DNA of 64,000 nt from an uncultured Verrucomicrobia subdivision 3 bacterium (GTDB lineage Bacteria; Verrucomicrobiota; Verrucomicrobiia; Limisphaerales; UBA11358), in the NCBI GenBank assembly GCA_903889895.1, contig CAISYZ010000089.1:5274-69273 (forward strand). Direction: 5' to 3'. The position numbers were made by a program, and so were the translations under genes. Under the pieces are notes generated by a model that saw nothing but the letters and a program-made list of their open reading frames with translations, did not search any database and was not told where the DNA came from. How positions within the stretch are numbered: the stretch's first letter is position 1; each line of letters begins with the position of its first letter. Positions 2,795 through 59,070 of the stretch are shown here, piece after piece.

Positions 2795-2814
2795 CATTGG
2801 CGCGCGCACCCCTT

Positions 2815-8048: not shown

Positions 8049-8083
8049 CTGGCAACTTGATAATTTGATTTCCAATGGAAGCG

Positions 8084-8115: not shown

Positions 8116-8142
8116 GCGATGACCAACACGGTTGCGAATCAA

Positions 8143-9477: not shown

Positions 9478-9551
9478 TTTCTAAATTAATTGAAGCCGGA
9501 AAAGACACGAATTGCACGAATTTTCACCAAGGGAATACTATTAATTCGCGC

Positions 9552-36534: not shown

Positions 36535-36572
36535 CGGGCGAAAACAAATTCGCGATAGTAAGCCGAAATTCC

Positions 36573-36692
36573 CCGCGCCTGTCGAGCAAGATGCGTGGGC
36601 GGAGCCGGAAAAAACTTACGCGGGACGGTGAAAGTGGGAATGCCGACGGAAGGCAGAATCAGGCTTGGCCGCCTATCAGTCTGTTAGGACAC
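36573..36692 (+). repeat. Island repeat R (copy 1), ending in GTTAGGACAC
   Basis: This is a direct repeat of 37328-37441. The first ~75 nt differ at only 2-3 positions by manual alignment, and the last ~45 nt have diverged. The right part is homologous to 6592-6659. Confidence 0.85.
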
Positions 36693-36696
36693 ATGG

Positions 36697-36987
36697 TCAT
36701 AAAACACCCCTCAAATGCCAAATCCAACAGGACAGAAAAAAGGAAACGAGAATCACTGGAAAATATCCGAACCGAATCAACTCAATATCCAGACGACTCG
36801 GAGACTGCGGATGCCGCCAAATCAACACGGCTGCGCCTCCCCAAAACGAAACCAAAGCGATGCCGCAAATCTCAGCAATGCCGCCACCATCCAAAATCAA
36901 CAAGGCCAAAAGCCCCAAAACAATCTGGAGCGCAATCGCCTCGAAAATCGGGCTGTCATACTTTGGTGAAATCGGTATCCGTTTCAT
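36697..36987 (-). CDS. Cassette ORF 1: small 3-TM membrane protein, unknown function
   Basis: 96 aa from the ATG at 36987 ('MKRIPISPKYDSPIFEAIALQIVLGLLALLIL...'). A TTG at 37041 would add 18 aa. The region is AT-richer than its flanks. The opposite-strand ORF is a K/R-rich shadow. Confidence 0.4.
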   Translation of the reverse strand: MKRIPISPKYDSPIFEAIALQIVLGLLALLILDGGGIAEICGIALVSFWGGAAVLIWRHPQSPSRLDIELIRFGYFPVILVSFFLSCWIWHLRGVL

Positions 36988-36998
36988 GGTGTGCGAAT

Positions 36999-37039
36999 GT
37001 GGTCTAACAATTATTAGACCCCAGCTTTTGTGGCCTATC
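36999..37039 (+). repeat. Boundary motif copies to the right of cassette 1: GTGGTCTAAC (inside the palindrome GGTCTAA-caatta-TTAGACC) and GTGGCCTATC
   Basis: These motifs are in inverted orientation relative to GTTAGGACAC at 36683-36692. Confidence 0.6.
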
Positions 37040-37159
37040 AAGTTTCACGGAAACGAGATTGCGCTGCCTGTAAATCCTTGTCCAGCCCGTTCTATGGGCG
37101 AATGCACCCGGCACCGGAACCGGCACCGGCGGCAAAACCGTCCGCCCGCCATTCGGCCT

Positions 37160-37334
37160 TCAAAACTCCGCATCCAGCTTCAGCACGCAATGCCCCAGGT
37201 CTAGCCGCGAGCCGTTCGCCTCCGGTTGGAGGTGCGCCGCCAGCTTGTAGAGCCGGCCATAACCCGTCGTTACCAGCCCCGCCTTCCGCAACACGGCCAT
37301 GTGCTTGGAAACCTTCGGCGCCGTGCTCCGCGCC
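37160..37334 (-). pseudogene. Truncated 3' copy (last ~57 codons plus stop) of the wHTH regulator gene at 38084-38401
   Basis: Only 2 of 175 nt differ from 38084-38258, and both differences are synonymous Leu codons. Homology stops abruptly at CCGCGCC (37328-37334), where repeat R' begins. Weaker homology continues downstream to about 37078 (matching about 38004). Confidence 0.8.
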
Positions 37335-37441
37335 TGTCGAGCAAGATGCGTGGGCGGAGCCGGAAAAAACTAACGGCGGGACGGTGAAAGTGGGAATGCC
37401 GACGGAATCAGGCATGGCAGTCTAGCTCGGTATTAGGCCAC
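37328..37441 (+). repeat. Island repeat R' (copy 2), ending in TTAGGCCAC
   Basis: See 36573-36692. It is fused through a shared 7-bp CCGCGCC to the truncated HTH copy. Confidence 0.85.
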
Positions 37442-37448
37442 GGATCTC

Positions 37449-37907
37449 TCATTGATTGTGTGAAACATCCAAAGTGCAACTCACTGTAAAGTTCGTGCCA
37501 TCAAATCCAAATCGGTATGGTGACAAAACATAATACCCAAGGGTGCAGTGCTGGGTCTGCTCAATAAACGTCCCCTTCTGGTCATACGACAATATCAAAC
37601 CACCGGGTGGGATTTGAAGGTAGCACAAATGAACCTGCGAATACTCCGGCAGATAATGTGTCTCTACTAAAGCCTGCACATTAGTCGGCCAGTGACCGAA
37701 TCTCTCGCGATAAAGTCTGGCTCGCTGATATAGAGCAGCCTGATGCGTCTGACAAATATCCAATGCTTCATTTGCTCGCCCATGGGCATATTCAGATCTC
37801 TCCGCTTCATTTGCTCGCTCAAAATATAGATAGCACGCACTACTACCTGCGACTATGCCAGCAGCAAAAGCGAGGCTTAATGCTAAAACTCTGGCCAGTA
37901 TTTTCAT
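37449..37907 (-). CDS. Cassette ORF 2: small exported or membrane-anchored protein, unknown function (weak pseudopilin-like flavour)
   Basis: 152 aa, with an N-terminal hydrophobic anchor 'MKILARVLALSLAFAAGIVAG'. 'FGHWPTNVQALVETHYLPE' resembles GspG/pilin-type segments. The region is clearly AT-richer. An alternative ATG at 37928 lies inside the boundary motif (ATGTTAGGCCAC). Confidence 0.5.
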   Translation of the reverse strand: MKILARVLALSLAFAAGIVAGSSACYLYFERANEAERSEYAHGRANEALDICQTHQAALYQRARLYRERFGHWPTNVQALVETHYLPEYSQVHLCYLQIPPGGLILSYDQKGTFIEQTQHCTLGYYVLSPYRFGFDGTNFTVSCTLDVSHNQ

Positions 37908-37916
37908 AAGCGTGAA

Positions 37917-37957
37917 GTGGCCTAACATCCAAGTCGGCCAAGTTGGTTTGATTGTTC
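37917..37957 (+). repeat. Inverted copy of the R right end (GTGGCCTAACATCCAAGTCGGCCAAGTTGG...) bounding cassette 2
   Basis: It shares GTGGCCTAACA and CGGCCAAG with the reverse complements of 36652-36692 and 6618-6659. Confidence 0.6.
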
Positions 37958-38083
37958 GTGCATATCTAGGTTGTGGAGAAAAACTATGCTGGGCACAAGT
38001 GGATGTCCAACCTGTTCTATTGGCGAATGAACTTTGGACCGCCACCGGAACCGGCGGCAACGCGTCCGCCCGACCTTCGGCCT

Positions 38084-38401
38084 TCAAAACTCCGCATCCA
38101 ACTTCAGCACGCAATGCCCCAGGTCCAGCCGCGAGCCGTTCGCCTCCGGTTGGAGGTGCGCCGCCAGCTTGTAGAGCCGGCCATAACCCGTCGTTACCAG
38201 CCCCGCCTTCCGCAACACGGCCATGTGCTTGGAAACCTTCGGCGCCGTGCTCCGCGCCAGTCCCGCCAACACCCAGACCGGCAGCGCCTCGCCTTTGGCC
38301 AGCTCCTTCAGAATCCGCCAGCGCACCGGGTCGTGCAACACGGTGGCCAAGTGCCTTAGTTTGGTGGCCGACGAAGTGGTGGTGGGTTCGGAGGTATTCA
38401 T
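38084..38401 (-). CDS. ArsR-like winged helix-turn-helix transcriptional regulator
   Basis: 105 aa from the ATG at 38401. 'LHDPVRWRILKELAKGEALPVWVLAGLARSTAPKVSKHMAVLRKAGLV' is the ArsR/SmtB-type HTH pattern. Confidence 0.65.
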   Translation of the reverse strand: MNTSEPTTTSSATKLRHLATVLHDPVRWRILKELAKGEALPVWVLAGLARSTAPKVSKHMAVLRKAGLVTTGYGRLYKLAAHLQPEANGSRLDLGHCVLKLDAEF

Positions 38402-38827
38402 ACCCCCAGCCAACACCCTTTCGCCCCCCGCCGTCAAGCCTTTTAAGCCAGCGGACGACTTGCAGAGACGAACGGACGAGCATCAGAAGAAAACCAACGC
38501 ACTTGAAAACCAAACATACGGATAACCAAAACGAACGGACGACTGCCAGAAGAATAAAAAGCGGTATGGAAAGCAGATAAATATATGAACAAAGCAAACA
38601 AACGATTATAAAGCTCTAACAGACGGCAACCAAAAGCAAATATATGACTTGTATCATCACGCAGATGCCGAAACTTCGTTCACAAAGGCGTTCCGGCTCG
38701 ATTCGAAGGCGCTCGGGAGGTGGGCGAACCGGGTTTTTACCGCGAAATACTCGAAATACGCGAAAGCGGTTTAATCGGGAGTCCCCCGTTCGCGTATTTC
38801 GCGTGGTTTGCGGTGAAAACCAGCTGC

Positions 38828-41800
38828 TTATTCTTCGGCGAACAGGTATTCCAAGTCCACTGCCGTGAGGCTGCGGGCAAAACCTTCTTCGCCGAGCACG
38901 TCGGCAATGGTCTTGGCCTTGGATTGCTGGAGTTCCCAGATTTTTTCCTCCACCGTGCCGGGCGCGATGAGCCGGTAGGCGTTCACCGTCTGCGTCTGGC
39001 CGATGCGGTGCGAGCGGTCAATGGCCTGCGCCTCCACCGCCGGGTTCCACCACGGGTCGTAAAGCACCACGTAGCTGGCGTTGGTGAGGTTCAGGCCGGT
39101 GCCGGCGGCGCGCAGGCTCAGCAGGAACACGCTCGCGCCGGTGTCTTTCTGGAAATCGTTGACGACGGACTGGCGGTCCTTGGTCTGGCCGGTGAGGGTG
39201 TGCGTGCGGATGTTGCGCGCCTGGCATTCCTTCTCCAGCAGTTGCAGCATCTGCACAAACTGCGAGAAGACGAGCACCTTCTGGCCGTCGGCGATGAGCG
39301 GGTCGAGCAGTTCGAACAGGGTGTCGGTCTTGCCGCTGGCGGTGTCGCTGCCCACGAGCGACGGATGGCAGCACACCTGCCGCAACCGCGTGAGCGCGGC
39401 GAGGACGTGCATCTTGGATTTGTTGAGGCCCTGCGTCTCGACGGCCTTCATCACCTGGTCGCGGCTGCGGCGCAACTCGGCGAGGTAAAGTTTCCGCTGA
39501 TCTTCGCCCAGCGGGCAATCGCGGCGTTCCTCGATGCGGTCGGGCAAATCTTTCGCGACGTGTTTTTTCAGGCGGCGCAGCAGCAGCGGGCGCAGCTTGG
39601 CGGACAGGCGCCGGCGCGCGATGCGTTGCTCGGCCTCGGCATTCTCGCCGCCCTTCGGCTCGTAGGTGTCGAGGAACTGTTCCTGGTTGCCGAGGTAGCC
39701 GGGCTGGATGAAATCCACGATGCTCCACAAATCCAACAGGCGGTTTTCCAACGGCGTGCCGGTGAGCGCGATCTTGTGTTCGCACTTCAACTGTTTGACG
39801 GATTGCGTGACTTGCGCGCCGGGGTTCTTGATGAACTGCGCCTCGTCCAGAATGACGGCGCGGAAGGCGAACTTGTGAAATTCCTCGAGGTCGCGGCGGA
39901 GCAGGGCGTAGTTGGTGACGATGAGGTCGTGCTGCGGAATCTGCTTCCGCAAATTATGGCGCGCCGCGCCGCTTTCGAGCACGAGCACCTTCATGTCCGG
40001 CGTGAACTTCTCCGCCTCGCGCCGCCAGTTGTGCAGCACGGACGCGGGACAGATGACGAGCGACGGCTTGGGATTCTTTTTGTTCTGCTCCTTGAGCCAC
40101 GCGAGCCAGGTCAAGGTTTGGAGCGTTTTGCCCAAGCCCATGTCGTCGGCCAGAATGCCGCCGAGCTTCACTCCCACGAGGTGCGCAAGGAAATCGAAGC
40201 CGTCCTTCTGATACGGCCGCAGTTCCGCCTGCAAACCCGCCGGCAGTTGCGCCGCCGGCACGCCCTTGAAATCCTTGACGCGTTCGCGCAAGGCCTGCGC
40301 CTCCGGCGAATCCACGAAGCGTTGCAAGCCGCCCTCGTCCAGATGCGCGACGTGTTCGAGCCCGACCTTCTGCGGCACGGCGATAAGACCGTCCACGCCC
40401 ATGTCGGCCATGGCCTCATGCGCGCCCTGCACGGCGGCGGTGTCGAGTTCCACCCAGCCGGCGTTCGGCAGCTTGACGAAACGGCTCGTCGCGGCGGCCA
40501 GACGGTCAAGGTCGGCCTTGGAAAGCTTCATGCCTTCCGCTTCCCATTCGGCGGAGACGGCGAGCCAGTCAATGCCGCTGCCCTTCACAACGAGGCGCGG
40601 CTTGAGCTGGCGTGGCTTGAGGAAGAGATGGTGGAACGCGGGGTTGCCGAGGAATTCGGCGTCGGCCGGCTTCGTGCCCCACGCGTCGGCGAGCAGGCCG
40701 AGGAAGTTTTCATTCGCATCGCCAATCCACAGCCCGGGTTCCTGCATGAACCAGTCGAGTTTGCGCAGCCAGTGCACCGCCGGTTCGAGGCGCGGGTCGT
40801 CGAGGATTTCCGGCTTGTCGCCGGGTTTGATGACGCGGCCGTGCGGCGTCCACTCGTGGCCGTTCCAGACCCAGGTGCTTTTGTCGCGCAGGCTTTTCGC
40901 CATGAGCCGCAACTGCACGGTGTCGTCCTGCAATTCAAACACGAACTGCGGCGTCGCCGGATGTGCGATGCAAAGCTGGTCCCAGTCCACGCCCTGATTG
41001 GCCTGCGACTTGCGCAGATGCAGCAGCAGGCGGTGGCTCAGCTTGCGCACCGGCACGGACGGTTTTTGCGCGAGATATTTCAGCACGCCGTTCGGCGGCG
41101 CGTTGCGGAGCAGATAAAAAGTGTTGCCGATGAGCGCAATCGGCGACTGGCGGTTGAAGAACTTCGCCTCGGCGATGGGATGGAACTTTCCGTCCGGCAG
41201 CGCGATGCGGTGCGTGAAGGCCAGTTCCTGCGTGCCGTTCTCGAGTTGCGGCGTGAGCGAAATGACTTCGCCGTGGAAATCAATCGGCATGCCGTTGCCG
41301 GCGAGTTCGAGACGGCCGGTGTTGCCCCAGCGCGCGAGCCATTGCAGCAGCTCGGCGTCGGTCAGCAGCAGCGAAGTCTCGTGGCCGGCGCGCTCGCGGT
41401 GCGTGTCGTAAATCCACTGGATGAATTCCCAGTCCCACGGCGTGAACAGCTCCTGCTCGTGCGCGGCGCGGACAACGAGGTCCACGAGGTCGTGCAGCGA
41501 GCGCGCCTTCTCGCCGGTGCGCGGGCGCAGCAGCAGAAATTGCAGCAGCATCCGGTGGCGCGACGGGTCGGCTTCGTCCGCCTGCGGCTTGCCGACGACG
41601 CGGAGCGTGGCGCGCGGTGTGTCGAGATGCAGCGGGGCGGAGGGCGCGAGCCAGTTTTCCAGTTCGCGGACGAGGCGGAGTTCCTGTTCGGCTTCCTCGG
41701 CGCGGGCGAACCGTTCCGGGCTGGCGTGCGGCTGCAATTCCGGCGGCACGGAGCGCTTGGCGCGCAGAAACAGAAACGCGAGTTCTTCCAGCCGCGCCTT

Positions 41801-42124
41801 GCCGGTGGCGGCGAGCATTTTCGGCCACCAGTCGTTCGCGGGAAAATCGCGGCGCGAGAGCGAGAGCTTCTCGAAATAATCCTCCAGTGCCAGCCACGCG
41901 CGCTGCGAGTCCGGGCAGGCGGCGAAGGTGCGCAGGATGTCCTCGCGCTCGTTGACGGTGGTTTTGGAGTCGGAAAGTTCGCGGCGCAGGTCGGCAAAAG
42001 CGCCGTAAGTCTGCGACAAAACCTTGTGGTGTGCGTCGTATTTGCTCGCGCCCGCGCGCGGCGTTCCGTTCCCGTTTCTGATTGGCGTTCTCGGCATCTG
42101 GGCAAAATTACTATGTTCTATCAT
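38828..42124 (-). CDS. SNF2/RapA-family helicase with a ~540-aa uncharacterised N-terminal region
   Basis: Helicase motifs are present: '[14 protein letters not shown]', '[11 protein letters not shown]', '[10 protein letters not shown]', '[15 protein letters not shown]' and '[21 protein letters not shown]'. I chose the start at 42124 (or 42097). The longer ORF to 42961 is antisense to asd. Confidence 0.85.
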   Translation of the reverse strand: [1098 protein letters not shown]

Positions 42125-42232
42125 TTCGACACAACCCGCGTTGGCGGTCAATCGCAAAGCAAAAGTTTTTTGGTCGGGAAGGCGGCGGGCGATTGACGGT
42201 TGGATGAATTTTGTTAAGCTGTCCGGCCATTT

Positions 42233-43237
42233 ATGAACCGCAATCCACACGTTGCAATTGTCGGTGCCACCGGCGCGGTCGGCATCGAGATGATCAAGAC
42301 CCTTGAAAAGCGGAATTTTCCCGTGGGCAAGCTCACGCTGCTCGCGTCCGCCCGTTCGGTCGGCAAGAAACTCAAGTTCAAGGGGCAGGACATCACCGTG
42401 ACGGAACTGACGAAGGATTCGTTTGCGGGCATTGACATCGCGCTCTTTAGCGCCGGCGGCGGCATCTCGAAGGAATTTGCCCCCATCGCCGCCAAGGCCG
42501 GCTGCGTGGTCGTGGACAACTCCAGCGCGTTCCGCCAGGACCCGAACGTGCCGCTGGTCGTGCCGGAGATCAATGCCGCCGACGTGAAGAAACACAAGGG
42601 CATCATCGCCAATCCGAATTGCACCACGGCCATCACGCTGATGGCGCTGTATCCGCTGCACCAGGCGTTCGGCGTGAAGCGCATTTTTGCCTCCAGCTAC
42701 CAGGCTGTTTCCGGCACGGGCGCGAAGGCTTTGGAAGAGCTGGAAAAACAGGTTGACCAAATTGTCCACAAGCAGCCGGTGACGAAGGAAGTCTATCCGC
42801 ACCAGATCGCGTTCAATGTGATTCCGCATGTGGACTCGTTTTTGGCCACCGGCTACACCAAGGAAGAGATGAAGATGGAAAACGAAGGCCGCAAGATCAT
42901 GCACCATGACAAGTTCCGCGCCAGCGTGACCTGCGTGCGCGTGCCGGTCTATCGGTCGCACTCCATTGCTGTGAGCGCGGAATTCGAGAAGCCGGTGTCG
43001 CTCGACGCGGCGCGCGCGGTTTTGAAGAAGGCGCCCGGTCTTGACGTCGTGGACGAGCCGGAGAACAAGAAATATCCGATGCCGCTGTTCACCTCCGAGA
43101 AATACAACTGCGAGGTCGGCCGCCTGCGCCTCGATTGCGCGCTGGATAACGGCCTGTGCTTCTGGGTCAGCGGCGATCAGCTGCTCAAGGGCGCCGCGCT
43201 CAACGCGGTGCAGATCGCGGAAGAGTTGGTGAAATAA
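42233..43237 (+). CDS. asd: Aspartate-semialdehyde dehydrogenase
   Basis: 334 aa, with 'VAIVGATGAVG', 'IIANPNCTT' and 'SYQAVSGTG'. Confidence 0.9.
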   Translation: MNRNPHVAIVGATGAVGIEMIKTLEKRNFPVGKLTLLASARSVGKKLKFKGQDITVTELTKDSFAGIDIALFSAGGGISKEFAPIAAKAGCVVVDNSSAFRQDPNVPLVVPEINAADVKKHKGIIANPNCTTAITLMALYPLHQAFGVKRIFASSYQAVSGTGAKALEELEKQVDQIVHKQPVTKEVYPHQIAFNVIPHVDSFLATGYTKEEMKMENEGRKIMHHDKFRASVTCVRVPVYRSHSIAVSAEFEKPVSLDAARAVLKKAPGLDVVDEPENKKYPMPLFTSEKYNCEVGRLRLDCALDNGLCFWVSGDQLLKGAALNAVQIAEELVK

Positions 43238-48441: not shown

Positions 48442-49641
48442 TCAACCGAGCCGCGGCAAAACCCGTTGGCAAATCGTCTGCCCGATGGCCAGCGACGCGG
48501 TCGCGGCCGGTGACGGCGCGTTGATGACGTGCAACATGCCCGGCGCTTCCACGAAATGAAAATCTTCGACCAGCTTACCATCCGGCGTCATTGCTTGCGC
48601 CCGCACGCCAGCGCCGCCCGGTTCGATGTCTTCCGTGCGGATTTCCGGCACCAGCTTTTGCAGCGAGCGCGTGAACTCGGCGCGTGAAAGTGAGCGGCGA
48701 ATTTCATAGCCACAGAGACTTGGATATTTCGCCAGGAATTTCCACAGGCCGGGAAAGGACAGTGACTCCACAAAATCTCGCAGATTAAAATCCGTCCATT
48801 TGTAGCCTTCGCGCGCGAAGGCCAGCACCGCGTTCGGCCCGGCCTCGATGCCACCGTGGATGAGTCGAGTAAAATGCACGCCGAGAAACGGGAACTTCGG
48901 ATCAGGCACCGGATAAATCAAATTGCGGACGAGGTGCTGCCGCTCCTTTTTGATGACATAATACTCGCCGCGAAACGGGACGATTTTGGCCGTCGGCTTT
49001 TGCCCGGATATTTTGACCACCCGGTCAGCATGCAATCCGCCGCACGCGACCACAAATTTTGCGCCGAAATTTCCGGCGGAAGACTCCACTACTTTCTTAA
49101 CGCCGGCGGAAATTATTTTTTCAACGCATGCGTTAAGCTTGATTTCTCCGCCCGCTTTGCGGATGAGTTCGCCGAGCTTTTCGCAGACGGCGGGATAATC
49201 CACGATGCCTTCCTGTGGCACATGAATCGCAGCGAGGCCGGCGGCATGCGGCTCGATTTCTTTGATTTGCTTCGGATTCAATTTGCGCAACCCTTGCAAG
49301 CCGTTGGCGTTGCCACGCGTCCAAAGGTTTTCCAAACGCTCCAGCTCGTTTTGCTCCGTGGCGACGACAATTTTTCCACACTGCTCATGCGCGATGCCAT
49401 GTTCGCGGCAAAACGCTACCATCTGTTGCAAGCCCTGCACGGCGCAGCGCGCTTTTTCTGAGCCGGGTTTGTAATAAAGTCCCGCGTGCAACACACCGCT
49501 ATTGTTGCCGGTCTGATGTGCGGCGAGCTTGGATTCTTTTTCGAGCAGCAGAATTTTCAATTGCGGCCTCGCCTCCAAAAGTCGATACGCCGTCGCCAAA
49601 CCAACAATCCCGCCACCCACAATGACCGCGTCGTATTTCAT
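48442..49641 (-). CDS. lhgO: L-2-hydroxyglutarate oxidase-like FAD-dependent oxidoreductase
   Basis: 399 aa, with 'YDAVIVGGGIVGLATA' and 'NSGVLHAGLYYKPGSEKA'. Confidence 0.8.
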   Translation of the reverse strand: MKYDAVIVGGGIVGLATAYRLLEARPQLKILLLEKESKLAAHQTGNNSGVLHAGLYYKPGSEKARCAVQGLQQMVAFCREHGIAHEQCGKIVVATEQNELERLENLWTRGNANGLQGLRKLNPKQIKEIEPHAAGLAAIHVPQEGIVDYPAVCEKLGELIRKAGGEIKLNACVEKIISAGVKKVVESSAGNFGAKFVVACGGLHADRVVKISGQKPTAKIVPFRGEYYVIKKERQHLVRNLIYPVPDPKFPFLGVHFTRLIHGGIEAGPNAVLAFAREGYKWTDFNLRDFVESLSFPGLWKFLAKYPSLCGYEIRRSLSRAEFTRSLQKLVPEIRTEDIEPGGAGVRAQAMTPDGKLVEDFHFVEAPGMLHVINAPSPAATASLAIGQTICQRVLPRLG

Positions 49642-50813
49642 TTATTCTTGCCGTCTTTGGACAGGAAGCCGACGGCCATCGCCTTGCCGTCACTGGCGAC
49701 CATACCGAGGAAGCGGAATAGCCGACGGAAAAAATTCAACTCAGGCCAGGCTATCAGGACTTCTTTTGCGAGTTTGTCTGCTTCGGAATTTTTACCAAGC
49801 GCGCGGAGACATTCCACCTTCATGTCCTGTGCCTGCCGCACGCGCAGATTTGACATTAGTGTGGCGTCAATAAATTTCAACGCCGCTTCGTATTTCTTGT
49901 CGGCGATACGCTGCTGCGCGTAGCCGAGCATCTGCGCGACGGCGGCAGCCTCTTTTTGGAAATATGCCGGGTTAAATGCGCGCCGTTCTTCCGGCGTGTG
50001 CAGCGTGAAGCGCTCCTCCTGAAACACCGCGTAGAGGTCGGAAAACTTATCTTGGGATTTTTCCAGTTCGGCGGCGCGCTGCTCCATTTTTTCCAAAGCG
50101 GTCTTTTTGCTGTCCGGGTCAAGGTTCATGGCATTAATCAATTTTTTGGCGGAGTCCTTACGCTCGTCCAGCGCGAGTTGAAAAAATCGCGCCCAGAAAG
50201 GCAGGTCGCGCATCCGCCGGGTTTTGCCCTTGCCGCCAATAGGCCGAACCACAATCGGCAGCCACGCATAGCGCCCGGCCATTTCGCCAATCTGGTGAAC
50301 CCAGCGGTCGTCATACCAAAACGGAAAGTGTCCGCAGAACAATGACTGCAAAGTCTCCAGCCAGTTCCAGCCGAAGACTGGATAGGTGCAGGTGTCGGCC
50401 GTCATCGGATCGTGCGGGCTGGCGAGAAAAATACCGTCGGGAAATGTTGCGGCGGTCTCGCGGAGAATGTTATCCCAGCCCGGCGTGTCGAAGCGAACGT
50501 CGTCGCCCAGCACCATAAAAACTTCCGCCGTGCGACCGGAAACCTCCCAGAGAATCTGCTGCATCTGGCCGAGGCCGGAAGTCTGCTGGCCGATGTGCCA
50601 GTGCAGTTGCACGCCCGCGTCGTTCAAAGTTCCGTCAGCAATCGCCTTGCGCGTGACGGCGTCGTCTTCGTCAACGTAGAGCCAGAGGGAAACTTTGTCT
50701 TTTTGGACCGTGTGCTGTTTCAGCGCGGTGAAAACTTCCGCGAGCATGTGCGGCCGCCCGCGCGTGGCCATGATGAGGCAGATTTCGCCGCGATGGATCT
50801 GCGCCGGATTCAT
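49638..50813 (-). CDS. GT-A-like putative glycosyltransferase with a C-terminal helical (TPR-like) extension
   Basis: The ATG at 50813 forms an ATGA overlap with the upstream stop. 'CLIMATRGRP', 'LYVDEDD' and 'GDDVRF' are reminiscent of the GT-A DxD fold. This is a weak call. Confidence 0.45.
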   Translation of the reverse strand: MNPAQIHRGEICLIMATRGRPHMLAEVFTALKQHTVQKDKVSLWLYVDEDDAVTRKAIADGTLNDAGVQLHWHIGQQTSGLGQMQQILWEVSGRTAEVFMVLGDDVRFDTPGWDNILRETAATFPDGIFLASPHDPMTADTCTYPVFGWNWLETLQSLFCGHFPFWYDDRWVHQIGEMAGRYAWLPIVVRPIGGKGKTRRMRDLPFWARFFQLALDERKDSAKKLINAMNLDPDSKKTALEKMEQRAAELEKSQDKFSDLYAVFQEERFTLHTPEERRAFNPAYFQKEAAAVAQMLGYAQQRIADKKYEAALKFIDATLMSNLRVRQAQDMKVECLRALGKNSEADKLAKEVLIAWPELNFFRRLFRFLGMVASDGKAMAVGFLSKDGKNK

Positions 50814-51760
50814 GCGTCGGCAAATTTGCGCCGGTCTTTCACGGCGTCGTAATTTTTTGCATACCATGCCACGGTGCGGCGGATGCCAGGCGCGAGTTCG
50901 TGGTTCATTACGATGCCATATTTTTCGCGGAGCTTGGTTGCATCTACAAATTTTTCCTTCGCGCCGGTATAACGGCTGGAGTTGAAAACCACCTTGCCCT
51001 GATAGCCCGCCGCTTCGCACACGGTCAACGCCAGCTCGCGAATCGTTTTACCGCGACCAGGCGCGAGATTGACGATGTCGCGTTCCAATTTCGGCGCAAG
51101 CTCCAGCAGGCTGCCAACAAAATCTTTCACGTCGGCCAAGTCGCGGACCTGTGTGCCGTCGCCCCAGATTTCCACTTCCGATAGATTCATTTTCACCGCT
51201 TTGACAAAGCGGCCGATGAGCGCTGACGGAACATGCGCGGTGGCTTCGTTGAAATCATCGTCCTCGCCATACATCGCGGGTGGGATGAGATAATTTCCAT
51301 TCAGTTTGAACTGGTCGTTGTAAGCGAGGATGCCGGTGTAAAGCATCCGCTTGGTCGCGCCGTAGGAATAAACGCTGCCGTGAATAGCCCCGTCAAAAAT
51401 CTTGTCTTCCGTCATCGCCTGCGCCGAGCTGGGATACGCACACGATGCCCCGAGTGCGATGAACTTTGCCTGCGGAATAGATTGCCGCCACGCTTCGAGC
51501 GTGTGGTTGTGGATGAGATTGTTGATGTAAAACTGCTCGGCCGTGTGCTTGGCGGGAAACTCGCCCGCTGCCTGAAAGCTGGCAAGGTGGATGATGAGCG
51601 TGGCGTCGCGGTGCGCGGAAAAAACCGCCTCGGCGTGTTCCCAGCGGGTTAGATCAAACTGCCGTTTGCCAAAAGCAAAATGGGGGATGCCGCGCGCAGT
51701 TAATTCCTGCTGCAAATGTCTGCCAACAAAACCTGTGCCGCCGGTGATGAGAACTTTCAT
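50810..51760 (-). CDS. GDP-L-fucose synthase family SDR (Fcl/ColC-like NDP-4-keto-sugar epimerase/reductase)
   Basis: 316 aa, with 'VLITGGTGFVGRHL', 'GASCAYP', 'YSYGATKRM' and 'PPAMYGEDDDF'. Confidence 0.75.
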   Translation of the reverse strand: MKVLITGGTGFVGRHLQQELTARGIPHFAFGKRQFDLTRWEHAEAVFSAHRDATLIIHLASFQAAGEFPAKHTAEQFYINNLIHNHTLEAWRQSIPQAKFIALGASCAYPSSAQAMTEDKIFDGAIHGSVYSYGATKRMLYTGILAYNDQFKLNGNYLIPPAMYGEDDDFNEATAHVPSALIGRFVKAVKMNLSEVEIWGDGTQVRDLADVKDFVGSLLELAPKLERDIVNLAPGRGKTIRELALTVCEAAGYQGKVVFNSSRYTGAKEKFVDATKLREKYGIVMNHELAPGIRRTVAWYAKNYDAVKDRRKFADA

Positions 51761-53298
51761 GCAACACAGGTCGGTTCAATCGCCAAGCAATTTGCGTTTG
51801 AGCTTGATGCTTGCCATTGCCTCGACATTTTTGCGCTGCTGCGGGCCGAAAGTTTTTTCCACCGACTGTAAATAAACCGGATTCGTGAATAAGTGCGCCA
51901 TGCCTCGTCGCGGAATTTCAGCACCTGCGCAGCGGATAGGTGTTTGGTTGGCAGCGGCTCGCTGTCATAGGAAAGAAATCCATAGCCGCTCGGTGAGGAG
52001 GGCAGTTTCCAGCCGTTCGCCTTGGCCGTGTAATAAAGCGGACTGCCGGGCAAAGCCTGGCACGGATACATGTTGGCCATTTCCGTATTCAGTTCCAGCG
52101 CGAGGTCGAGTGTCTGCTGCATCGTCTCATGCGTGTCCTCTGGGAACCCAAAGATGTAGTTCGAAATGACATACATGCCGGATTCACGGACGGTCTTGAT
52201 GACTTCGCGGATGTTGACGTCCTGAAAGCTACCCTTCGAAACCTCACGGCGGACGGTTTGGTTGCCGGCTTCGACACCCAGCGCGAGCCAGTTGATGCCG
52301 GCCTTGCGGAATTTTTCGAGATACTGCGGCCGCACTGTATCAATCCGTGAATAAGTCCACATCCGCAAATCGAGCTGCCGTTCAATGAGACCATCCAGCA
52401 AAGGCTCGTAGTAATTCTTGTTAAGGAAAAACATCTCGTCCGATACGCGAATGGTTTTTGCGCCCATCGAGGCAAGCTTTTCGAATTCCTTCACCATGAA
52501 CTGCGGCGACCAGAATCGCATGTTCGGTGAGTTAGCGGAGACGACACCATCCGCATTGTCCGTGCGGTTTACGATATTGATCATGCAGAAGTCGCACTTG
52601 AACTTGCAGCCTAGAGACGTGTAAATCGCGGCGAACGGCGTGCGCAAATCATGGTTGAACTCCGCGTGCCAGAAATGCGCGCGATACAAGTCGAGCGGCT
52701 TGTTTTTATAGGGCAGCAAATCCCATGCGTAGCCCGGCAAGTCGGTGTCCATCCGTTCATTCGGAACGACCATCTCCGGCGGATTCAAGACGGGCACGCC
52801 GTTTTGCTTGTGGCCGATACCCTTGACTTTATCCAAGCTGGAAACCAAATCCGTCCGCAGCAAGTTTTGCAGCGCATAGACGCCCTCGTTCAGCAAAATG
52901 AAATCCACTTCCGGCAGCGCAATTACTTCCATTGGCAGCGCGCTGGTGTGCGAGCCGACGAAGCAAGTTTTTGTGTTGGGATGCGCTGCTTTTAGTTTTC
53001 GGGCGAGAGAAGTCGCGCCGATCATGTTGGTCGTGCCGGAGTTCGGGTTTTGTCCGTAAACCACAAAGCATATGAGCCGCGCAGGCATTTCACTGATGCG
53101 CTGGACCGATTGCTCTTCCGATAGGCGTTCCGCGCCACAGTCAAGTATGTTTACTCCGAACCCTTGCGAGCGGCAGGCTTGCGCGAGCAGCAGTGCCCAC
53201 GTAGGTGGTTCAATCGCCGAGAAATCTTTGCTTAAGTCTTGGTAAGCCTGCGCTGATGAGTCCGCGTTGACAAACAGGACGTCGAGGGGGCGGTTCAT
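51757..53298 (-). CDS. B12-binding-domain radical SAM enzyme (class B, candidate C-methyltransferase)
   Basis: 513 aa. The N-terminal cobalamin-binding Rossmann region includes 'VLFVNAD...PPTWALLLAQ'. The radical SAM cluster motif 'GCKFKCDFC' (CX3CX2C) is present. Confidence 0.85.
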   Translation of the reverse strand: MNRPLDVLFVNADSSAQAYQDLSKDFSAIEPPTWALLLAQACRSQGFGVNILDCGAERLSEEQSVQRISEMPARLICFVVYGQNPNSGTTNMIGATSLARKLKAAHPNTKTCFVGSHTSALPMEVIALPEVDFILLNEGVYALQNLLRTDLVSSLDKVKGIGHKQNGVPVLNPPEMVVPNERMDTDLPGYAWDLLPYKNKPLDLYRAHFWHAEFNHDLRTPFAAIYTSLGCKFKCDFCMINIVNRTDNADGVVSANSPNMRFWSPQFMVKEFEKLASMGAKTIRVSDEMFFLNKNYYEPLLDGLIERQLDLRMWTYSRIDTVRPQYLEKFRKAGINWLALGVEAGNQTVRREVSKGSFQDVNIREVIKTVRESGMYVISNYIFGFPEDTHETMQQTLDLALELNTEMANMYPCQALPGSPLYYTAKANGWKLPSSPSGYGFLSYDSEPLPTKHLSAAQVLKFRDEAWRTYSRIRFIYSRWKKLSARSSAKMSRQWQASSSNANCLAIEPTCVA

Positions 53299-53302
53299 AA
53301 TT

Positions 53303-54520
53303 TCAAATTGAATTCAGCAGTTCGCAGAGCGCCTTGATTCGATCGGTTGCCAAATCTGGATAATTACCGATGTAAGCGCCGAAGAAATGGACGTGATTGA
53401 CCTGCGGATAATCTTCCGCGCAGTCGAACTCGCGGCGCAGAAATGGCTGGCGCAATTGGTTGCCGCCACCAGACAGACCGCGGCGGAATTCAATCTTGCG
53501 TTCGCGCAACTTGGCTTCGATGCGATCCCACAAAGCTTGGTTTGCTTCGCGCAGAACGAGCGTGAAAGCGTAGTTCACGCTACCTTCGCGGTCAAAGTTG
53601 GTGTAAAACTTTTTCGGGTCGAGGTTGTCGAGAAAGACGTTTTGATTGCGCATGCGCTTTTCGTTGTTCGCGTCGAGGCGTTTCAACTGCGCGCGACCGA
53701 GAACGGCGTTGAGTTCCGTGCTGCGGACGTTGTAAGCGGGGAACGCGAAGATAAAATCAGGATTCAAATCCGGGAAATCAGATTTGTATTTTGCCTTCAA
53801 TGCGTCGTCCTTGCTCTCGCGCACCATGCCGTGCGAGCGCATCATGCGGAGCGTTTCGTAAAAATCAGAATCGTTCGTGCAAACCATGCCGCCTTCGATG
53901 GTGCTCATGTGGTGCGCGTAGTAGAACGAGAAGTTTGACGCGAAACCGAGGCTGCCCAGACGCTTGCCTTGAAACGTCGCGCCGTGCGATTCGCAAACGT
54001 CTTCGATGATCGGTATGTTGCGCTTCTGGCATTCGTCAATCAACGTCTGGTCGAGCGCATTGAAACCGAGGACGTGCGTGATGAATACGGCGCGCGTGGA
54101 GGAATTCAATTCCGCCAAAACCTGTGTGATGTCCATGCCGAGCGTGCGCGGATTGATGTCCACGAACACGGGATCAAAACCGGCTTGAATGACGGAGGCG
54201 ATGTCGGAAACCCACGTGAGCGTCGGCACGATGACTTCGCCGGCGCCAAATTTTTCCTTGAGCGCAGCCATCGTGATCTGGTTCGCGGAGGAACCAGAAT
54301 TCACGAACACGCTGTGCTTCACGCCGAGCCATTCGGACCATTCCTGCTCGAACGCGATGACGTTCTTCGATTGGGTGAGAATCGGGTCTTCCTGTTTGAG
54401 AAATTCAATCAGCGCATCGAGGTCTTCGCGCGGAATGTTATTCTGCATCAAGGGCCAGTCGCGCAAATTCGCGGCGGTCACGGGTTCACTTTTCGCTGTA
54501 GTAGTCGCCATATTCAACAA
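53303..54520 (-). CDS. DegT/DnrJ/EryC1 fold PLP/PMP enzyme of the ColD/E1 3-dehydratase type
   Basis: 405 aa. 'VNSGSSANQITMAAL' is present. The active-site segment 'SFYYAHHMSTIEGG' has His where aminotransferases carry the Schiff-base Lys. The start (54520 or 54511) overlaps the upstream gene by about 26-35 nt. Confidence 0.7.
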   Translation of the reverse strand: MLNMATTTAKSEPVTAANLRDWPLMQNNIPREDLDALIEFLKQEDPILTQSKNVIAFEQEWSEWLGVKHSVFVNSGSSANQITMAALKEKFGAGEVIVPTLTWVSDIASVIQAGFDPVFVDINPRTLGMDITQVLAELNSSTRAVFITHVLGFNALDQTLIDECQKRNIPIIEDVCESHGATFQGKRLGSLGFASNFSFYYAHHMSTIEGGMVCTNDSDFYETLRMMRSHGMVRESKDDALKAKYKSDFPDLNPDFIFAFPAYNVRSTELNAVLGRAQLKRLDANNEKRMRNQNVFLDNLDPKKFYTNFDREGSVNYAFTLVLREANQALWDRIEAKLRERKIEFRRGLSGGGNQLRQPFLRREFDCAEDYPQVNHVHFFGAYIGNYPDLATDRIKALCELLNSI

Positions 54521-55022
54521 TGATTGTGCTTTTACCGTCCGTGCGCGTCAGCGCCTTTTCGTAGGCCGGAAAAATATGTTCAGGTTCGTCGAGGCGGATG
54601 ACCTCGATGTTTTTACACATCAGCCGGAAAGCTTCTGTGAAATCGCCGACATGCTGGTGCTGCGGGTGCAGCGGACGTTCCGAGCCGATGCCGGTGCGGA
54701 TGATAACCTTGGGCTGGTAGCCGCCGTCGGACATCGCGGAAAGTTTGTCGAGGTGGCTAACCACCTGGCTGACGGCGCAGAGCAAAAAGTTCCAGCGCGG
54801 ATAGATGCTTACGGGCACCAAGCCATTCAGCGCCATGCCGATGGACATGCCCATCTGCAAATCTTCCGTCACGGGCATCTCCAAAAGTTTTGCGCGATCC
54901 ACATTTTTTAGCGTGTTCGTCATCGCTGTGCCCGCGCAGGCCACCGCCTGGCCGAGAAACAGCGTGCGCGGATCGCGCGCGAGGAATTCCATCGAGCGGC
55001 TAAGTTCGTCAAAATACTTCAT
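54486..55022 (-). CDS. Minimal TPP-enzyme subunit, E1-beta / transketolase pyrimidine-binding-domain-like
   Basis: 178 aa. 'LLEMPVTEDLQMGMSIGMALNGLVPVSIYPRWNFLLCAVSQVV' matches the E1-beta Pyr-domain pattern. It lacks the usual C-terminal domain. Confidence 0.65.
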   Translation of the reverse strand: MKYFDELSRSMEFLARDPRTLFLGQAVACAGTAMTNTLKNVDRAKLLEMPVTEDLQMGMSIGMALNGLVPVSIYPRWNFLLCAVSQVVSHLDKLSAMSDGGYQPKVIIRTGIGSERPLHPQHQHVGDFTEAFRLMCKNIEVIRLDEPEHIFPAYEKALTRTDGKSTIIVEYGDYYSEK

Positions 55023-55034
55023 GCGAAAATAAAA

Positions 55035-55655
55035 TTAAAATTGGACGCGCTGGCCGGCTCCGGCGTGCGGGTATTTGGTTTCGTATTTGTAGAACGTCAC
55101 CAACGGATGCCTGTCGTTTTCGTAGGTGAGAACTTTTTGCGCCCACGCTTCGCGCGTGTCGGTGCAGACGGACTTGCCGTTGTCTTCGACGATGAAGCGA
55201 ATCGGTAACTGATGATTGTAGGAATACTTCACGCTCTCGTGAAAAATCCCCGTCTCGCTCGTCATCTCGCCCGCGAAGCAATGAACCATGCCTTTTTCGC
55301 CTTTGCGCTTGAGGCTCAAGGCCGCTCCAACTGCAATCGGTATAATGCCGCCGACGATGGCCGAAGAGACGATGCGTTGTTTTGGAAAGCAGAGAGAAAT
55401 GGAATGGCCGGCGAGAATTTCCGACTTCAACTCCTCACGCGGCACGCCTTTGAGCAGGCATTGATAATGACTCCGCCACGAGCAAAAAACCCAGTCTTCC
55501 GGCTTCACGTCGCGAAAGAGTTCAATCATCTTTTCCTCGTTGCCGTAATAAAGATGAATGGGCGCGCGGATTTTTGCGGCGTTAAACAAATCCGCAATCT
55601 CCGTCTCAAAGGCGATTAAATCTTGGGCGGTCATGGAGCAGACAGCTTGCCGCAC
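55035..55655 (-). CDS. Minimal TPP-enzyme subunit, E1-alpha (PP-domain)-like
   Basis: 206 aa. 'IHLYYGNEE', 'SWRSHYQCLLKG', 'VGGIIPIAVGAALSLK' and 'CFAGEMTSETGIFHESVKYSYNHQLPIRFIVEDNG' together resemble the TPP-binding GDG-X-N-like region. Confidence 0.65.
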   Translation of the reverse strand: MRQAVCSMTAQDLIAFETEIADLFNAAKIRAPIHLYYGNEEKMIELFRDVKPEDWVFCSWRSHYQCLLKGVPREELKSEILAGHSISLCFPKQRIVSSAIVGGIIPIAVGAALSLKRKGEKGMVHCFAGEMTSETGIFHESVKYSYNHQLPIRFIVEDNGKSVCTDTREAWAQKVLTYENDRHPLVTFYKYETKYPHAGAGQRVQF

Positions 55656-55720
55656 CGACGTAACAGGGTCAAGTTTTGACGCGCCCGAAAGGGTTTGGGC
55701 AGGTTAATTTTGCGTGAACT

Positions 55721-56797
55721 TCAGATGTTGGCACCCGGCGCGCTGGCGTCCAGTTCACGGAAGGCCTCAACCTGTTGCTTATCCCGCGCCTTGTCGTGTG
55801 CGGAGTAATCCTCCTCCAGCTCATGAAAAATCACCTGGCTGCCGCCAAACTCAAACTTGAACGGCACATGAATCAACCGGCTCAGCTGCTTCTTGATTTT
55901 GGCGTGCTTCGCTGGTGCCGCGAACACGAGCAAAAATCCGCCTCCGCCCGCGCCGAGCAGCTTTCCGCCCAGCGCGCCGGCGGAGCGCGCCGCCTCGTAG
56001 GCCGCATCCACCTGATCATTGGAAATCTTGTCGCTTAAACTACGTTTCGCGAGCCACGCTTCGTGCAACAACTCGCCGAATGGCGCGAGGTCTTGGCCGC
56101 TGTTCAGGATTTCGCAGCCTTTGTCCACGCAGTCACGCATCTTGTTCAGCAGCGCCACGCGGTCGGCGAGGCTCGGCACAAAACTTGTGGCTACCGTGGC
56201 CGCCGTGCGCTTGATGCCGGTGTAAAAAAGCATCAGATGCGAATTCAATTCTTCAATTCGCTCGTGGGTCAACGTCATCGGTTGCACGGAAAATTCGCCG
56301 TTCTGGAAAAAGCTGATGCGGTTCAATCCGCCGTAAGCCGCGCAAACTTGATCCTGCGAACCGACCATTTCTTTCAGCATCTCCTGCTCAATGTGGATGC
56401 TTTCCGCCGCGAGCTGCTTTTTGCCAACCGCCCGGCCCTGCAAGGCATAAAGTGCGTTGAGCAAACCGACGGTAAACGCCGAACTGGAACCCATGCCGCT
56501 GCGGCCCGGCAGGTCGCCGTCGTGATGGATTTCCACACCGCGCGCGAGCTTGAGAAAGCGCAGGGTCTCGCGGGCCGAGGGATGCTGGATTTCCTCCGGC
56601 TTCTGGCAGTTCTCGATTTTGGAATAAACGACGCGGATGCGATGCTCGAAAAACGGCGGCAGATAGCGGCACGTCAGGTAGCAGTATTTGTTGATGGTGG
56701 TCGCAAGCACTGCGCCGCCATGCTGCCGATACCACGCCGGATAGTCCGTGCCGCCGCCGAAAAACGAAATGCGAAATGGGGTTCTGCTGATAATCAT
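55721..56797 (-). CDS. GHMP-family sugar kinase (HddA / D-glycero-D-manno-heptose-7-phosphate kinase-like)
   Basis: 358 aa. The N-terminus is 'IISRTPFRISFFGGGTDYP', the GHMP motif is 'PGRSGMGSSSAFTVGL', and 'LGAGGGGFLL' is present. Confidence 0.8.
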   Translation of the reverse strand: MIISRTPFRISFFGGGTDYPAWYRQHGGAVLATTINKYCYLTCRYLPPFFEHRIRVVYSKIENCQKPEEIQHPSARETLRFLKLARGVEIHHDGDLPGRSGMGSSSAFTVGLLNALYALQGRAVGKKQLAAESIHIEQEMLKEMVGSQDQVCAAYGGLNRISFFQNGEFSVQPMTLTHERIEELNSHLMLFYTGIKRTAATVATSFVPSLADRVALLNKMRDCVDKGCEILNSGQDLAPFGELLHEAWLAKRSLSDKISNDQVDAAYEAARSAGALGGKLLGAGGGGFLLVFAAPAKHAKIKKQLSRLIHVPFKFEFGGSQVIFHELEEDYSAHDKARDKQQVEAFRELDASAPGANI

Positions 56798-56857
56798 AGC
56801 TGCGACTCAAAAGTGTTGAACCGAAAACTACTGGCTGCGATTTATCGCCACAAGTTG

Positions 56858-57385
56858 TTAAATGCTTAATTTGCCCCGCGCCACCGCCGCCAGCAGTGCC
56901 GCCCAGTTGCCGGCGCTGTAGAAATCCGGTTCCTGTAGGAGCGATTTCAAATCCCTTGTCCAGAGCACACAGTTCAAGCCAGCTTCAATCTCCGCCGCCG
57001 GTGCGGGAGTGGCATTGCCGGCGAAATAACACCAAATCCGGTTTGTAAACCGCCCGGGCGAGGGCGATATGTTGGCGAGCAATTCAAATTTTTCCGCGCC
57101 GTGGCCGGTCTCTTCCAGTAACTCCTTCCGCGCAGCCTGTTCCGGCGTCTCGTCTTGCTCAACGTGGCCGGCGGGCAGTTCCAAAGTCATTTTCGCGACC
57201 GCATGGCGGAACTGGCGCACGAGCAGCAGTTCCTTATTCTCCGTCACCGCGATGATGCAGACAAAGTCCGCCGAATTGATGGAGTAGTTTGGATGTTTTC
57301 CACTGCCCGCCGCTTCCTGCACTTGAAACCAGGGCGTGGCATAAACGGTTTTTCGCTCTGGGAATTTTTCGCACATACGATTCAT
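56858..57385 (-). CDS. NUDIX hydrolase
   Basis: 175 aa, with the Nudix box 'GHVEQDETPEQAARKELLEETG'. Confidence 0.8.
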   Translation of the reverse strand: MNRMCEKFPERKTVYATPWFQVQEAAGSGKHPNYSINSADFVCIIAVTENKELLLVRQFRHAVAKMTLELPAGHVEQDETPEQAARKELLEETGHGAEKFELLANISPSPGRFTNRIWCYFAGNATPAPAAEIEAGLNCVLWTRDLKSLLQEPDFYSAGNWAALLAAVARGKLSI

Positions 57386-58122: not shown

Positions 58123-58127
58123 AAGCG

Positions 58128-59060: not shown

Positions 59061-59070
59061 AGGTTAAAAT

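Follow-up and report, generated by a model that had tools for sequence, protein, structure and literature searches.

How two unrelated small genes come to stand between nearly identical repeats is the question raised by positions 36535-38640 of a 64,000-nucleotide stretch of DNA (hereafter the window) from an uncultured Verrucomicrobia subdivision 3 bacterium. Read in gene direction, the interval and its borders hold SNF2, arsR, X2, a 3′ fragment of arsR, X1, and carB, all on the minus strand, where X1 and X2 are the two open reading frames (ORFs) in question. A first, sequence-only reading had described AT-richer, repeat-bounded modules around the two ORFs and had taken the repeats, called H and R, for conserved recombination arms flanking exchangeable payloads. 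The description and its coordinates are confirmed by a repeat finder and by the ORF list. Both payloads are integron-type gene cassettes whose genes are intact and under purifying selection, and the two-module architecture is a one-off product. The SNF2-carB interval is probably a strain-variable spot that holds domesticated integron-type cassettes outside any integron and without a foldable attC site.

Cassette ends and array-borne relatives

In gene direction, X1 and X2 are both preceded by GTTAG(G/A)CCAC and followed by GTG(G/T)CCTAA(C/T). These ends correspond to the core (GTTRRRY) and inverse core (RYYYAAC) of integrons, and each cassette departs from the inverse-core consensus at one position (TCCTAAC in X1, GCCTAAT in X2). 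The X2 cassette begins at the core site GTTAGGCCAC (37917-37926, a GTTRRRY match within the motif cluster) and ends at the inverse core GTGGCCTAAT (37432-37441), and the X1 cassette extends from GTTAGACCAC (36999-37008) to GTGTCCTAAC (36683-36692). Core and inverse core are complementary within each cassette, which consists of one promoterless-looking ORF between a core and its own complementary inverse core. The ends also covary within two further cassettes that occupy the interval in other strains, X3 (GTTAG-CCAC...GTGGCCTAAC) and X4 (TTTAGGCGTA...TACGCCTAAC), and the same covariation is seen in a canonical array on contig L029. Five of the seven matches to GTGGCCTAAC in the window (at most one mismatch) fall within the 1.3 kb of the island. 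The 10-bp motif that the first reading had placed at the boundaries is real and clusters there, and its identity is corrected to the integron core and inverse core. Palindromes with arms of 7-8 nt and spacers of 4-5 nt are present at some boundaries only. The modules of dif/pdif (XerC/XerD) systems are each flanked by 28-bp sites (11-6-11) in inverted orientation; here the 10-bp integron-type core is all that the boundaries have in common, as judged without a formal dif model.

The X2 gene (37449-37907) encodes a protein of 152 aa that has conserved cysteines and, at its N-terminus, a membrane anchor. It has 38 homologs with 57-100% identity, all of them from Verrucomicrobial metagenome contigs or metagenome-assembled genomes (MAGs), and a ratio of nonsynonymous to synonymous substitution rates (dN/dS) of 0.09-0.19. 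The X1 gene (36697-36987, 96 aa, three predicted membrane helices) belongs to a family with at least 195 homologs in the Verrucomicrobiota and shows a dN/dS of 0.18-0.26. None of X1, X2, and X3 has a match in Pfam, NCBIfam, or PADLOC, and X4 has a weak Imm33-like match in Pfam (E = 0.0016). The AlphaFold model of X2 has a predicted local distance difference test score of 68.7, and no fold or sequence match to X2 was found in the PDB; an impression from the sequence that X2 is pilin-like is unsupported by the structure and family searches. Both genes are probably read in the arsR-to-carB direction, and the membrane-spanning X1 and the anchored, cysteine-containing X2 would serve accessory envelope functions.

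An integron comprises an intI tyrosine recombinase gene beside an array of cassettes, in which the attC sites are imperfect palindromes of 55-140 nt located 3′ of each ORF and formed by pairing of the R''/R' and L''/L' boxes. An X2 homolog with 84% identity lies in an array of this kind on L029, within approximately 20 co-oriented small ORFs that are separated by repeats of 95-112 nt. The repeats start with GCCTAAC, end with GTTAGGC, align well with one another, and form R''/R' and L''/L' stems in which seven pairs show compensatory changes; they fold at -28 to -32 kcal/mol with end-to-end pairing. A covariance model built from 14 canonical L029 sites finds 19 matches in the 10.4 kb of this contig (E values from 1e-33 to 2.5e-10) and further sites beside X2 homologs in L027, L031, and L032, as well as in L046. 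No integrase is present within the fetched 10 kb of L029. The contig (ENA ERZ25039534, positions 1-10459, from a Verrucomicrobial metagenome) resembles a textbook array, with attC matches of 95-131 nt and a highly conserved R''-L'' arm, and one of its small ORFs carries a CdiI_3 immunity domain.

The leader of the window X2 (GTTAGGCCACTTCRC..ATG) and its trailer (TGAGAGAYCNGTGGCCTAA, part of the 3′ cassette end) are conserved in the array-borne X2 copies. Homologs of X1 are found in two arrays of co-oriented small ORFs, L040 and L046. In L046 an attC match of 37 bits lies directly upstream of the X1 homolog, and leader and trailer are similar to those of the window X1; the L040 copy, whose array carries a UPF0175/DUF3368 toxin-antitoxin pair, has only a GTGGCC remnant of the trailer in common with it. 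The parallel with integrons suggested by the first reading is thus borne out by the core-type ends, by the X2 homologs inside attC arrays, and by the X1 homolog directly after an attC. The 707 nt upstream of the small cassette cluster in L046 (4854-5560) hold several tandem, partly inverted copies of a unit of approximately 60 nt (GTCAGGTCTCCGTCAGAGAGTCGGGGTTCT...).

Other X2 homologs are solitary and form AT-rich inserts between core genes, kdsA and kdsC in L028 and rpsT and a glycosyltransferase gene in L036, and still others adjoin IS110 or DDE transposases and have a truncated attC. The L028 copy (4948-5459, 78% identity, 46% GC) stands alone between kdsA and kdsC of a lipopolysaccharide-transport operon (61-63% GC), is preceded by ...AATTAAATT|TTAGGGC without an attC, and is another domesticated solitary cassette. 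The solitary X2 region of L036 is flanked by a 16-nt direct repeat, GCTGAATARCCAGCTT.

Alleles of the interval and origin of the double form

Alleles of the interval were retrieved from public assemblies with the exact ArsR, carB, and X1 proteins and with one DNA scan; the species itself is absent from the genome collection, and the same-species comparison rests on genome fragments. The exact ArsR protein was found on 13 metagenome contigs, and the scan of metagenome DNA with the carB leader returned only two contigs, one of them new. A total of five alleles were found, which carry X2 and X1, X1, X3, X4, or a lectin gene. Allele A is the double form of the window and is 100% identical on contigs from at least 10 samples. 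Allele B (L005; arsR-Ha-La-X1-R-carB, where La is a leader before the cassette) is 99.9% identical to positions 37338-36300 of the window and stems from the BUCK21-1 sample series, as do the doublet contigs L017 and L019. It carries the H-A copy of repeat H fused to an intact arsR 5′ part, and it has the H-A state at every informative position. Allele C (L009, a contig of 155 kb) has the same flanks around the unrelated 151-aa ORF X3, and its homology to the window breaks off at 36999 and is regained at 36692, exactly at the two 10-bp motifs that delimit the X1 cassette. Allele D (L012) carries the 103-aa ORF X4 and has extra single-nucleotide polymorphisms (SNPs) in the last ~12 nt of La. Allele E (L023), the new allele from the DNA scan, is without arsR and encodes a 355-aa C-type-lectin ORF (Lectin_C, E = 2.8e-7); its homology to R begins only at CGCCGTTAGTTTTTTCC. 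The lectin gene (L023, reverse strand 611-1678, 48% GC) replaces the whole arsR-cassette segment in this one strain, and its stop codon lies inside an inverse-core-like CGCTAAT box, 38 nt before the common GTTAGTTTTTTCC. The arsR gene is intact in alleles A-C, its 3′ end is seen in D, and it is absent from E.

The alleles differ by less than 1% in carB and its promoter, but over the 40 nt that follow the inverse core the difference is ~25%. Cassettes thus turn over rapidly in comparison with the divergence of the flanks, and each of them is accompanied by a short tail. Homology resumes at or near G|TTAGT in all alleles, and those with a single cassette have one H and one R. The first reading's proposal of exchangeable payloads, with different cassettes in the carB-SNF2 interval of different strains, is therefore upheld by five metagenome alleles whose carB flanks are more than 99% identical.

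The two cassettes have a GC content of 46-48%, compared with 62-65% in arsR and carB, and lie on either side of duplicated sequence. The H repeat is direct, spans ~260 nt (37079-37338 and 38004-38262), and shows 92.7% identity overall by repeat finder and alignment, with 98% over the 200 nt of the inner part (37139-37338 and 38063-38262) and 81% over 57 nt of the distal part (37079-37135 and 38004-38060). The copy H-B (38004-38262; repeat families D1 and D2, aligned with H-A, L005, and L009) comprises the 3′ 179 nt of the intact arsR gene and ~80 nt downstream, and H-A (37079-37338) is a truncated arsR 3′ copy with its downstream region, a pseudogene fragment whose stop codon lies at 37160-37162. 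The direct repeat R (36573-36692 and, as R', 37328-37441) is 98-100% identical over the 80 nt nearest to carB and 73% identical over the 37 nt nearest to the ORF (98% for 36573-36620 and 37328-37375, 100% for 36620-36651 and 37376-37407, 73% for 36656-36692 and 37405-37441). By alignment, R is a composite of ~40 cassette-linked nucleotides, a relic described below, the GTAAG/GTTAG boundary, and the native carB -35 region. R' (repeat families D3-D5) is a copy of the carB-upstream region with the GTTAG variant and the -35 box that is cut before the -10 box; the native -10 box, TACTAT, and the 5′ leader of carB are present in single copy (36535-36572). Between H-A and the X1 cassette lies the 70-nt leader La (37009-37078), which a comparison of the alleles shows to be common to those with X1, X3, or X4, and between H-B and the X2 cassette lies the 77-nt leader Lb (37927-38003), as read from the sequence.

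The duplication of H and R is explained by the fusion of two alleles at the 7-bp microhomology CCGCGCC, which occurs once in arsR (38252-38258, in mid-gene), once upstream of carB (36573-36579, between the -35 and -10 boxes), and once at the junction of R' with the truncated arsR (37328-37334, not assigned to a strand). When the flanks are included (36573-36583, 37328-37338, and 38252-38262), 10 out of 11 nt match. R' keeps GTTAG, the variant of other strains, up to the junction, and R has the strain-specific GTAAG. Over most of the arsR coding part H-B and H-A are identical, and H-B departs from H-A more and more as the cassette is approached. La and Lb are unrelated, Lb having arrived with the X2 allele. 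Both marks of an illegitimate recombination product, a microhomology junction and different variants in the repeat copies, are therefore present. In the proposed event an incoming arsR-Hb-Lb-X2-R'-carB would recombine with a resident arsR-Ha-La-X1-R-carB, by a homologous crossover in or upstream of arsR at one end and an illegitimate join at CCGCGCC at the other, duplicating H and R and leaving the truncated arsR. From the anatomy of the junction we infer that the stacking occurred by homology-facilitated illegitimate recombination. Recombination between the two H copies could collapse the doublet to the single-cassette form seen in L005, and allele B would be the parent that received the DNA or, alternatively, would have arisen from the doublet by H x H deletion. 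The view of H and R as conserved recombination arms has accordingly been abandoned: H is a truncated copy of the regulator gene, and R is the carB-upstream region with a relic.

The relic consists of the 71 nt after the X1 end (36622-36692), which are 83% identical to positions 6589-6659 of the window in a local alignment (minus strand; score 45.5, compared with 14.8 +/- 1.5 for shuffles). The second copy overlaps the final codons of the gene (3942-6617) for an 891-aa beta-propeller/phosphoesterase and ends in GTGGCCTAAC. It is followed by 345 AT-rich nucleotides in which no convincing gene is seen, and the same spacing is found on three other contigs. The acidic C-terminus of the 891-aa protein is native to its family, indicating that part of R is a relic of the end of this gene. 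Positions 6589-7004 may be a decayed cassette site, and possible routes of the relic to its place upstream of carB are a segmental copy or an imprecise integrase-mediated excision with flanking DNA. Apart from this relic, no copies of R and H were found elsewhere. The 32-nt core of R occurs twice in the 64 kb, where chance predicts no occurrence; the idea that R is an element present in many genomic copies was rejected, since the core is found only these two times in the window and a degenerate pattern is absent from 185,579 species genomes. No DNA of La, Lb, R, or X3/X4 is present in 0.8 Mb of loci from other lineages.

The intact arsR gene (38084-38401, 105 aa) encodes a winged-helix protein of the ArsR/SmtB family with Pfam matches to HTH_20 (E = 1.3e-7, 31.9 bits, cut-off 27) and HTH_5 (E = 1.5e-6, 28.4 bits, cut-off 22); its match to the NCBIfam ArsR/SmtB metalloregulator (E = 1.9e-11) is below the cut-off of that model. 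No evidence that this helix-turn-helix protein controls the cassettes was found. On the other side of the interval, the supposed carB fragment turned out to be a complete gene: carB is split, and this gene (36534 to 34744, 596 aa) encodes its C-terminal half, which in 16 Limisphaerales MAGs starts at residue 1. The promoter-like boxes TCGACA/TGGACA and TACTAT (TGGACA-N17/18-TACTAT) and the leader are conserved in 18 Limisphaerales relatives (comparison loci L052-L098). The nearest genomes, in which the neighbouring 370-aa protein is 84-85% identical, are MAGs that carry the label Verrucomicrobia subdivision 3 or Limisphaerales. None of the 18 Limisphaerales genomes with the gene pair of carB and this 370-aa protein has SNF2, arsR, X1, or X2 upstream of carB. 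The interval thus varies between strains and also marks a break in synteny that is specific to the species, and the empty site is not reconstructable from synteny.

The region between SNF2 and arsR (38402-38827) has 40-48% GC and a strong A-skew on the plus strand. It contains a 22-nt direct repeat (38445-38466 and 38529-38550, 84 nt apart), a 38-nt inverted repeat just past the SNF2 stop codon (38732-38769 and 38784-38821), and, at 38614-38624, CTCTAACAGAC, a sequence similar to the cassette-end motif but oppositely oriented. The SNF2 ORF (38828-42961) has a mechanical length of 1377 aa, compared with 1081-1089 aa from gene callers on identical contigs, and about 290 codons at the start of the long ORF probably remain untranslated. 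SNF2 was rejected as a defence gene because its PADLOC matches to DpdE and ZorD cover the generic helicase core only. Farther away, a minus-strand sugar-nucleotide/polysaccharide cluster (48442-61755) that is unrelated to the cassettes encodes a DegT aminotransferase, a B12-radical SAM protein, three epimerases/dehydratases, a GHMP kinase, a nucleotidyl transferase, and split transketolase-like subunits.

Cassettes without attC sites or a recombinase

A Pfam scan of the ~50 ORFs that cover the 64 kb revealed no recombinase, integrase, invertase, or transposase domain. With filters off, the attC model built from L029 finds nothing in the window below E = 0.18. The top match (36999-37021, at the end of La) is non-significant at that value and corresponds to a collapsed R''-R' pair whose whole interior is missing. 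The fold energies of R, R', La, and Lb, at -4.5 to -12 kcal/mol, are no better than those of shuffles, and in none of the four do the ends pair with each other. Rfam returns for the island only a chance match to a long noncoding RNA (E = 0.53). The first reading's statement that the window has neither a recombinase nor a canonical attC thus holds by domain scan, attC model, and folding.

Several candidates for a hidden attC were rejected. R and R', as well as the L009 and L012 versions of R, have fold z-scores of +0.3 to +2.0 and no end-to-end pairing. La and Lb, on either strand, fold at -12.2 and -8.2 kcal/mol (the latter value for the 104-nt stretch 37917-38020 that contains Lb) and reach attC-model E values of 0.18 or worse. 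A short attC split around the cassette was considered from a TGATAGGC..AAGC repeat on both sides of X1, the rebuilt junctions of which do not fold end to end; L036 has a repeat similar to this one. Of what makes up a complete integron, neither intI nor attC is present, and cassette ends and array-homologous genes are. Clusters of attC sites without an integron-integrase (CALIN) have at least two, and single attC sites lacking integron-integrases (SALIN) at least one, detectable attC without an integrase; the L029-built model detects none here, the two classes themselves being defined via IntegronFinder. The defining features of an integron, of CALIN, and of SALIN are thus lacking, and the cassettes are best termed stranded or domesticated.

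How such cassettes could have reached the interval is suggested by the documented insertion of cassettes at genomic GWT sites and by the proposal that they later lose their attC through replication slippage (Loot et al., bioRxiv 10.1101/2022.09.11.507474). An integrase encoded elsewhere would mobilise cassettes from attC arrays such as L029, the cassettes would land at a G|TT site downstream of arsR, and the attC hairpin would then be lost. Between strains, one cassette would replace another through recombination that acts within R and at the core sites or close to them. On the left side, both junctions (AATTG|TTAGAC and GGATG|TTAGGC) fit insertion at GWT, a sequence that carries very little information, and no empty site was found among the retrieved loci.

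A number of observations weigh against this history. An integron integrase was found neither in the window nor in any fetched locus, including the same-species gene tables, and the primary insertion step can therefore only be inferred. Insertion by attC x attG should leave a whole attC 3′ of the ORF, so that its loss is required in every allele. In all four cassette alleles the tails run into the same ...TTCCGTCGGC, a junction that is not G|TT, and the 71-nt relic shared with 6589-6659 is outside the account. A search of the island for a sigma-70-like promoter found none. With regard to the stacking, the donor allele arsR-X2-R'-carB is absent as a single unit among the observed alleles, and a two-step route, in which an unequal crossover or tandem duplication is followed by replacement of one copy, could also produce the doublet; this route is less parsimonious and requires a homologous crossover within 40 nt.

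Among the other explanations, the end of La could be an orphan attI-like docking site, a recognition site for an integrase that acts from elsewhere, which would make the interval an active satellite cassette platform. X1, X3, and X4 all follow the same La, the L009 break falls at a canonical G|TT, the carB and R flanks of these strains are more than 99% identical, and La ends in a small palindrome, GGTCTAAT-AATT-GTTAGACC (GGTCTAAY-AATT-GTTAGRC), that resembles the L and R boxes of a simple site. La also has a GATAGGC motif, located 24 nt before G|TT, and at the unrelated solitary X2 site in L036 GATAGRC stands ahead of G|TTAGG at an equal distance of 24 nt. Functional cassettes whose end is an attI remnant in place of attC have been documented (PMC12901181). 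However, no integrase is present in the window or in the fetched gene tables, the GATAGGC motif was noticed post hoc and is absent from Lb, the X2 leader, which has no relation to La, and the junctions on the right-hand side do not fall at G|TT. The L012 SNPs in the last 12 nt of La are, moreover, what would be expected from homologous exchange with diverged donors, and the docking-site explanation appears somewhat unlikely. The motif is doubled in L036 and L030, where two direct GATAGRC repeats ~20-30 nt apart are followed after ~24-30 nt by G|TTAGG (L036:7900-8560, L030:3890-4000), a geometry that is reminiscent of attI, with no adjacent integrase. It is unlikely that the end of La is an attI-like site still served in trans, at which attC-less cassettes are swapped at G|TT, and that the 71-nt tail is DNA from an imprecise excision elsewhere; if true, the interval would bear the natural trace of a genome rearrangement that cassettes have driven in an uncultured phylum.

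Alternatively, the interval could be a plain replacement islet, with its content swapped only by homologous recombination in the flanking genes and without a site-specific step; the integron-like ends would then have been inherited from the place of origin of the genes. The wholesale exchange of arsR and cassettes for a lectin gene in allele E, the divergence gradients of H and R, which look like homologous-recombination tracts, and the species-specific SNF2-arsR-carB synteny are in keeping with this, but the L009 break points match the core sites to the base and all alleles, including E, resume homology at or beside GTTAG(T). The solitary X2 copies in unrelated genomes begin at the same G|TTAGG, which points to a site-specific primary insertion, and a plain islet is quite improbable. 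Nearly identical flanks around unrelated ORFs, together with the occurrence of single and double forms in samples of the BUCK21-1 series, would also suit H and R as arms of a dedicated shuffling system (shufflon-, dif-module-, or silent-cassette-like) under helix-turn-helix control. Yet H is a truncated gene copy, R holds half of the carB promoter, and one microhomology junction ends both. The one-cassette alleles carry one H and one R, the 64 kb contain no recombinase, neither repeat folds or pairs as a recombination site or recurs elsewhere except for the 71-nt relic, and H x H homologous deletion suffices for the single form. No evidence of an autonomous shuffling system was found in these data, and the dedicated model is largely refuted and very improbable. 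Domesticated cassettes at a strain-variable spot remain the preferred explanation of the interval.

Relation to known systems

The locus is a variant of known integron biology, in which attC-less cassettes occupy a chromosomal hot spot and two alleles have been stacked. Integron cassettes are usually studied within the integrons of Proteobacteria, and their spread to ordinary sites (attG, SALIN) has been shown mainly in the laboratory and by attC-based scans. The window adds a natural, population-level case from the Verrucomicrobia in which near-identical strains differ at one chromosomal position and whose cassettes attC-based tools would miss. It makes visible a route from mobile cassette to fixed accessory gene, along which the attC hairpin is lost and purifying selection is kept, and it illustrates integrase-free array building, in which two alleles are stacked into a mini-array by an ordinary illegitimate crossover. 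It also serves as a warning that a repeat-bounded, modular architecture can stem from a single recombination accident.

As in sedentary chromosomal integrons and CALIN, the payloads are single small co-oriented ORFs, mostly without a function by annotation and with complementary GTTRRRY/RYYYAAC ends, and as in CALIN no integrase is nearby. The candidate segments of the island fold at -4.5 to -12 kcal/mol, in contrast to -28 to -32 kcal/mol for attC, and X1 and X2 are parted by a gene fragment and a promoter piece, unlike the cassettes of an integron array, which are parted by attC. With regard to the stacking, de Vries and Wackernagel reportedly described in 2002, for Acinetobacter and Streptococcus, a homologous anchor combined with a join at 3-10 bp of microhomology, by which foreign DNA is added and partial duplications arise. 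The present case differs from such homology-facilitated illegitimate recombination in that it is read from junction anatomy only and that the donor would be another allele of the same locus. Ross and colleagues are said to have reported in 2019 that the recombinase-associated orphan immunity arrays (rAID) of Bacteroidales have their own tyrosine recombinase and conserved intergenic punctuation. The small orphan genes, among them the weakly Imm33-like X4 and the CdiI_3 ORF of L029, are reminiscent of rAID, whereas the repeats are different, rAID has a recombinase of its own, and X1 and X2 lack a match to an immunity family.

The SALIN (10.1101/2022.09.11.507474) are similar in that isolated cassettes stand at G|TT (GWT) in intergenic DNA near a host promoter, but a SALIN keeps its attC, which is gone in every allele here. 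In addition, one site here holds different cassettes in near-identical strains, and its right junction is not GWT. Cassettes with attI remnants (PMC12901181) likewise lack a canonical attC on one side and are still units beside attI-like remnants; these cassettes lie within class 1 or class 2 integrons beside intI and were shown to recombine, whereas the window belongs to another phylum, has no integrase that was found and no proven attI, and carries its core-bounded cassettes between a regulator gene and carB.

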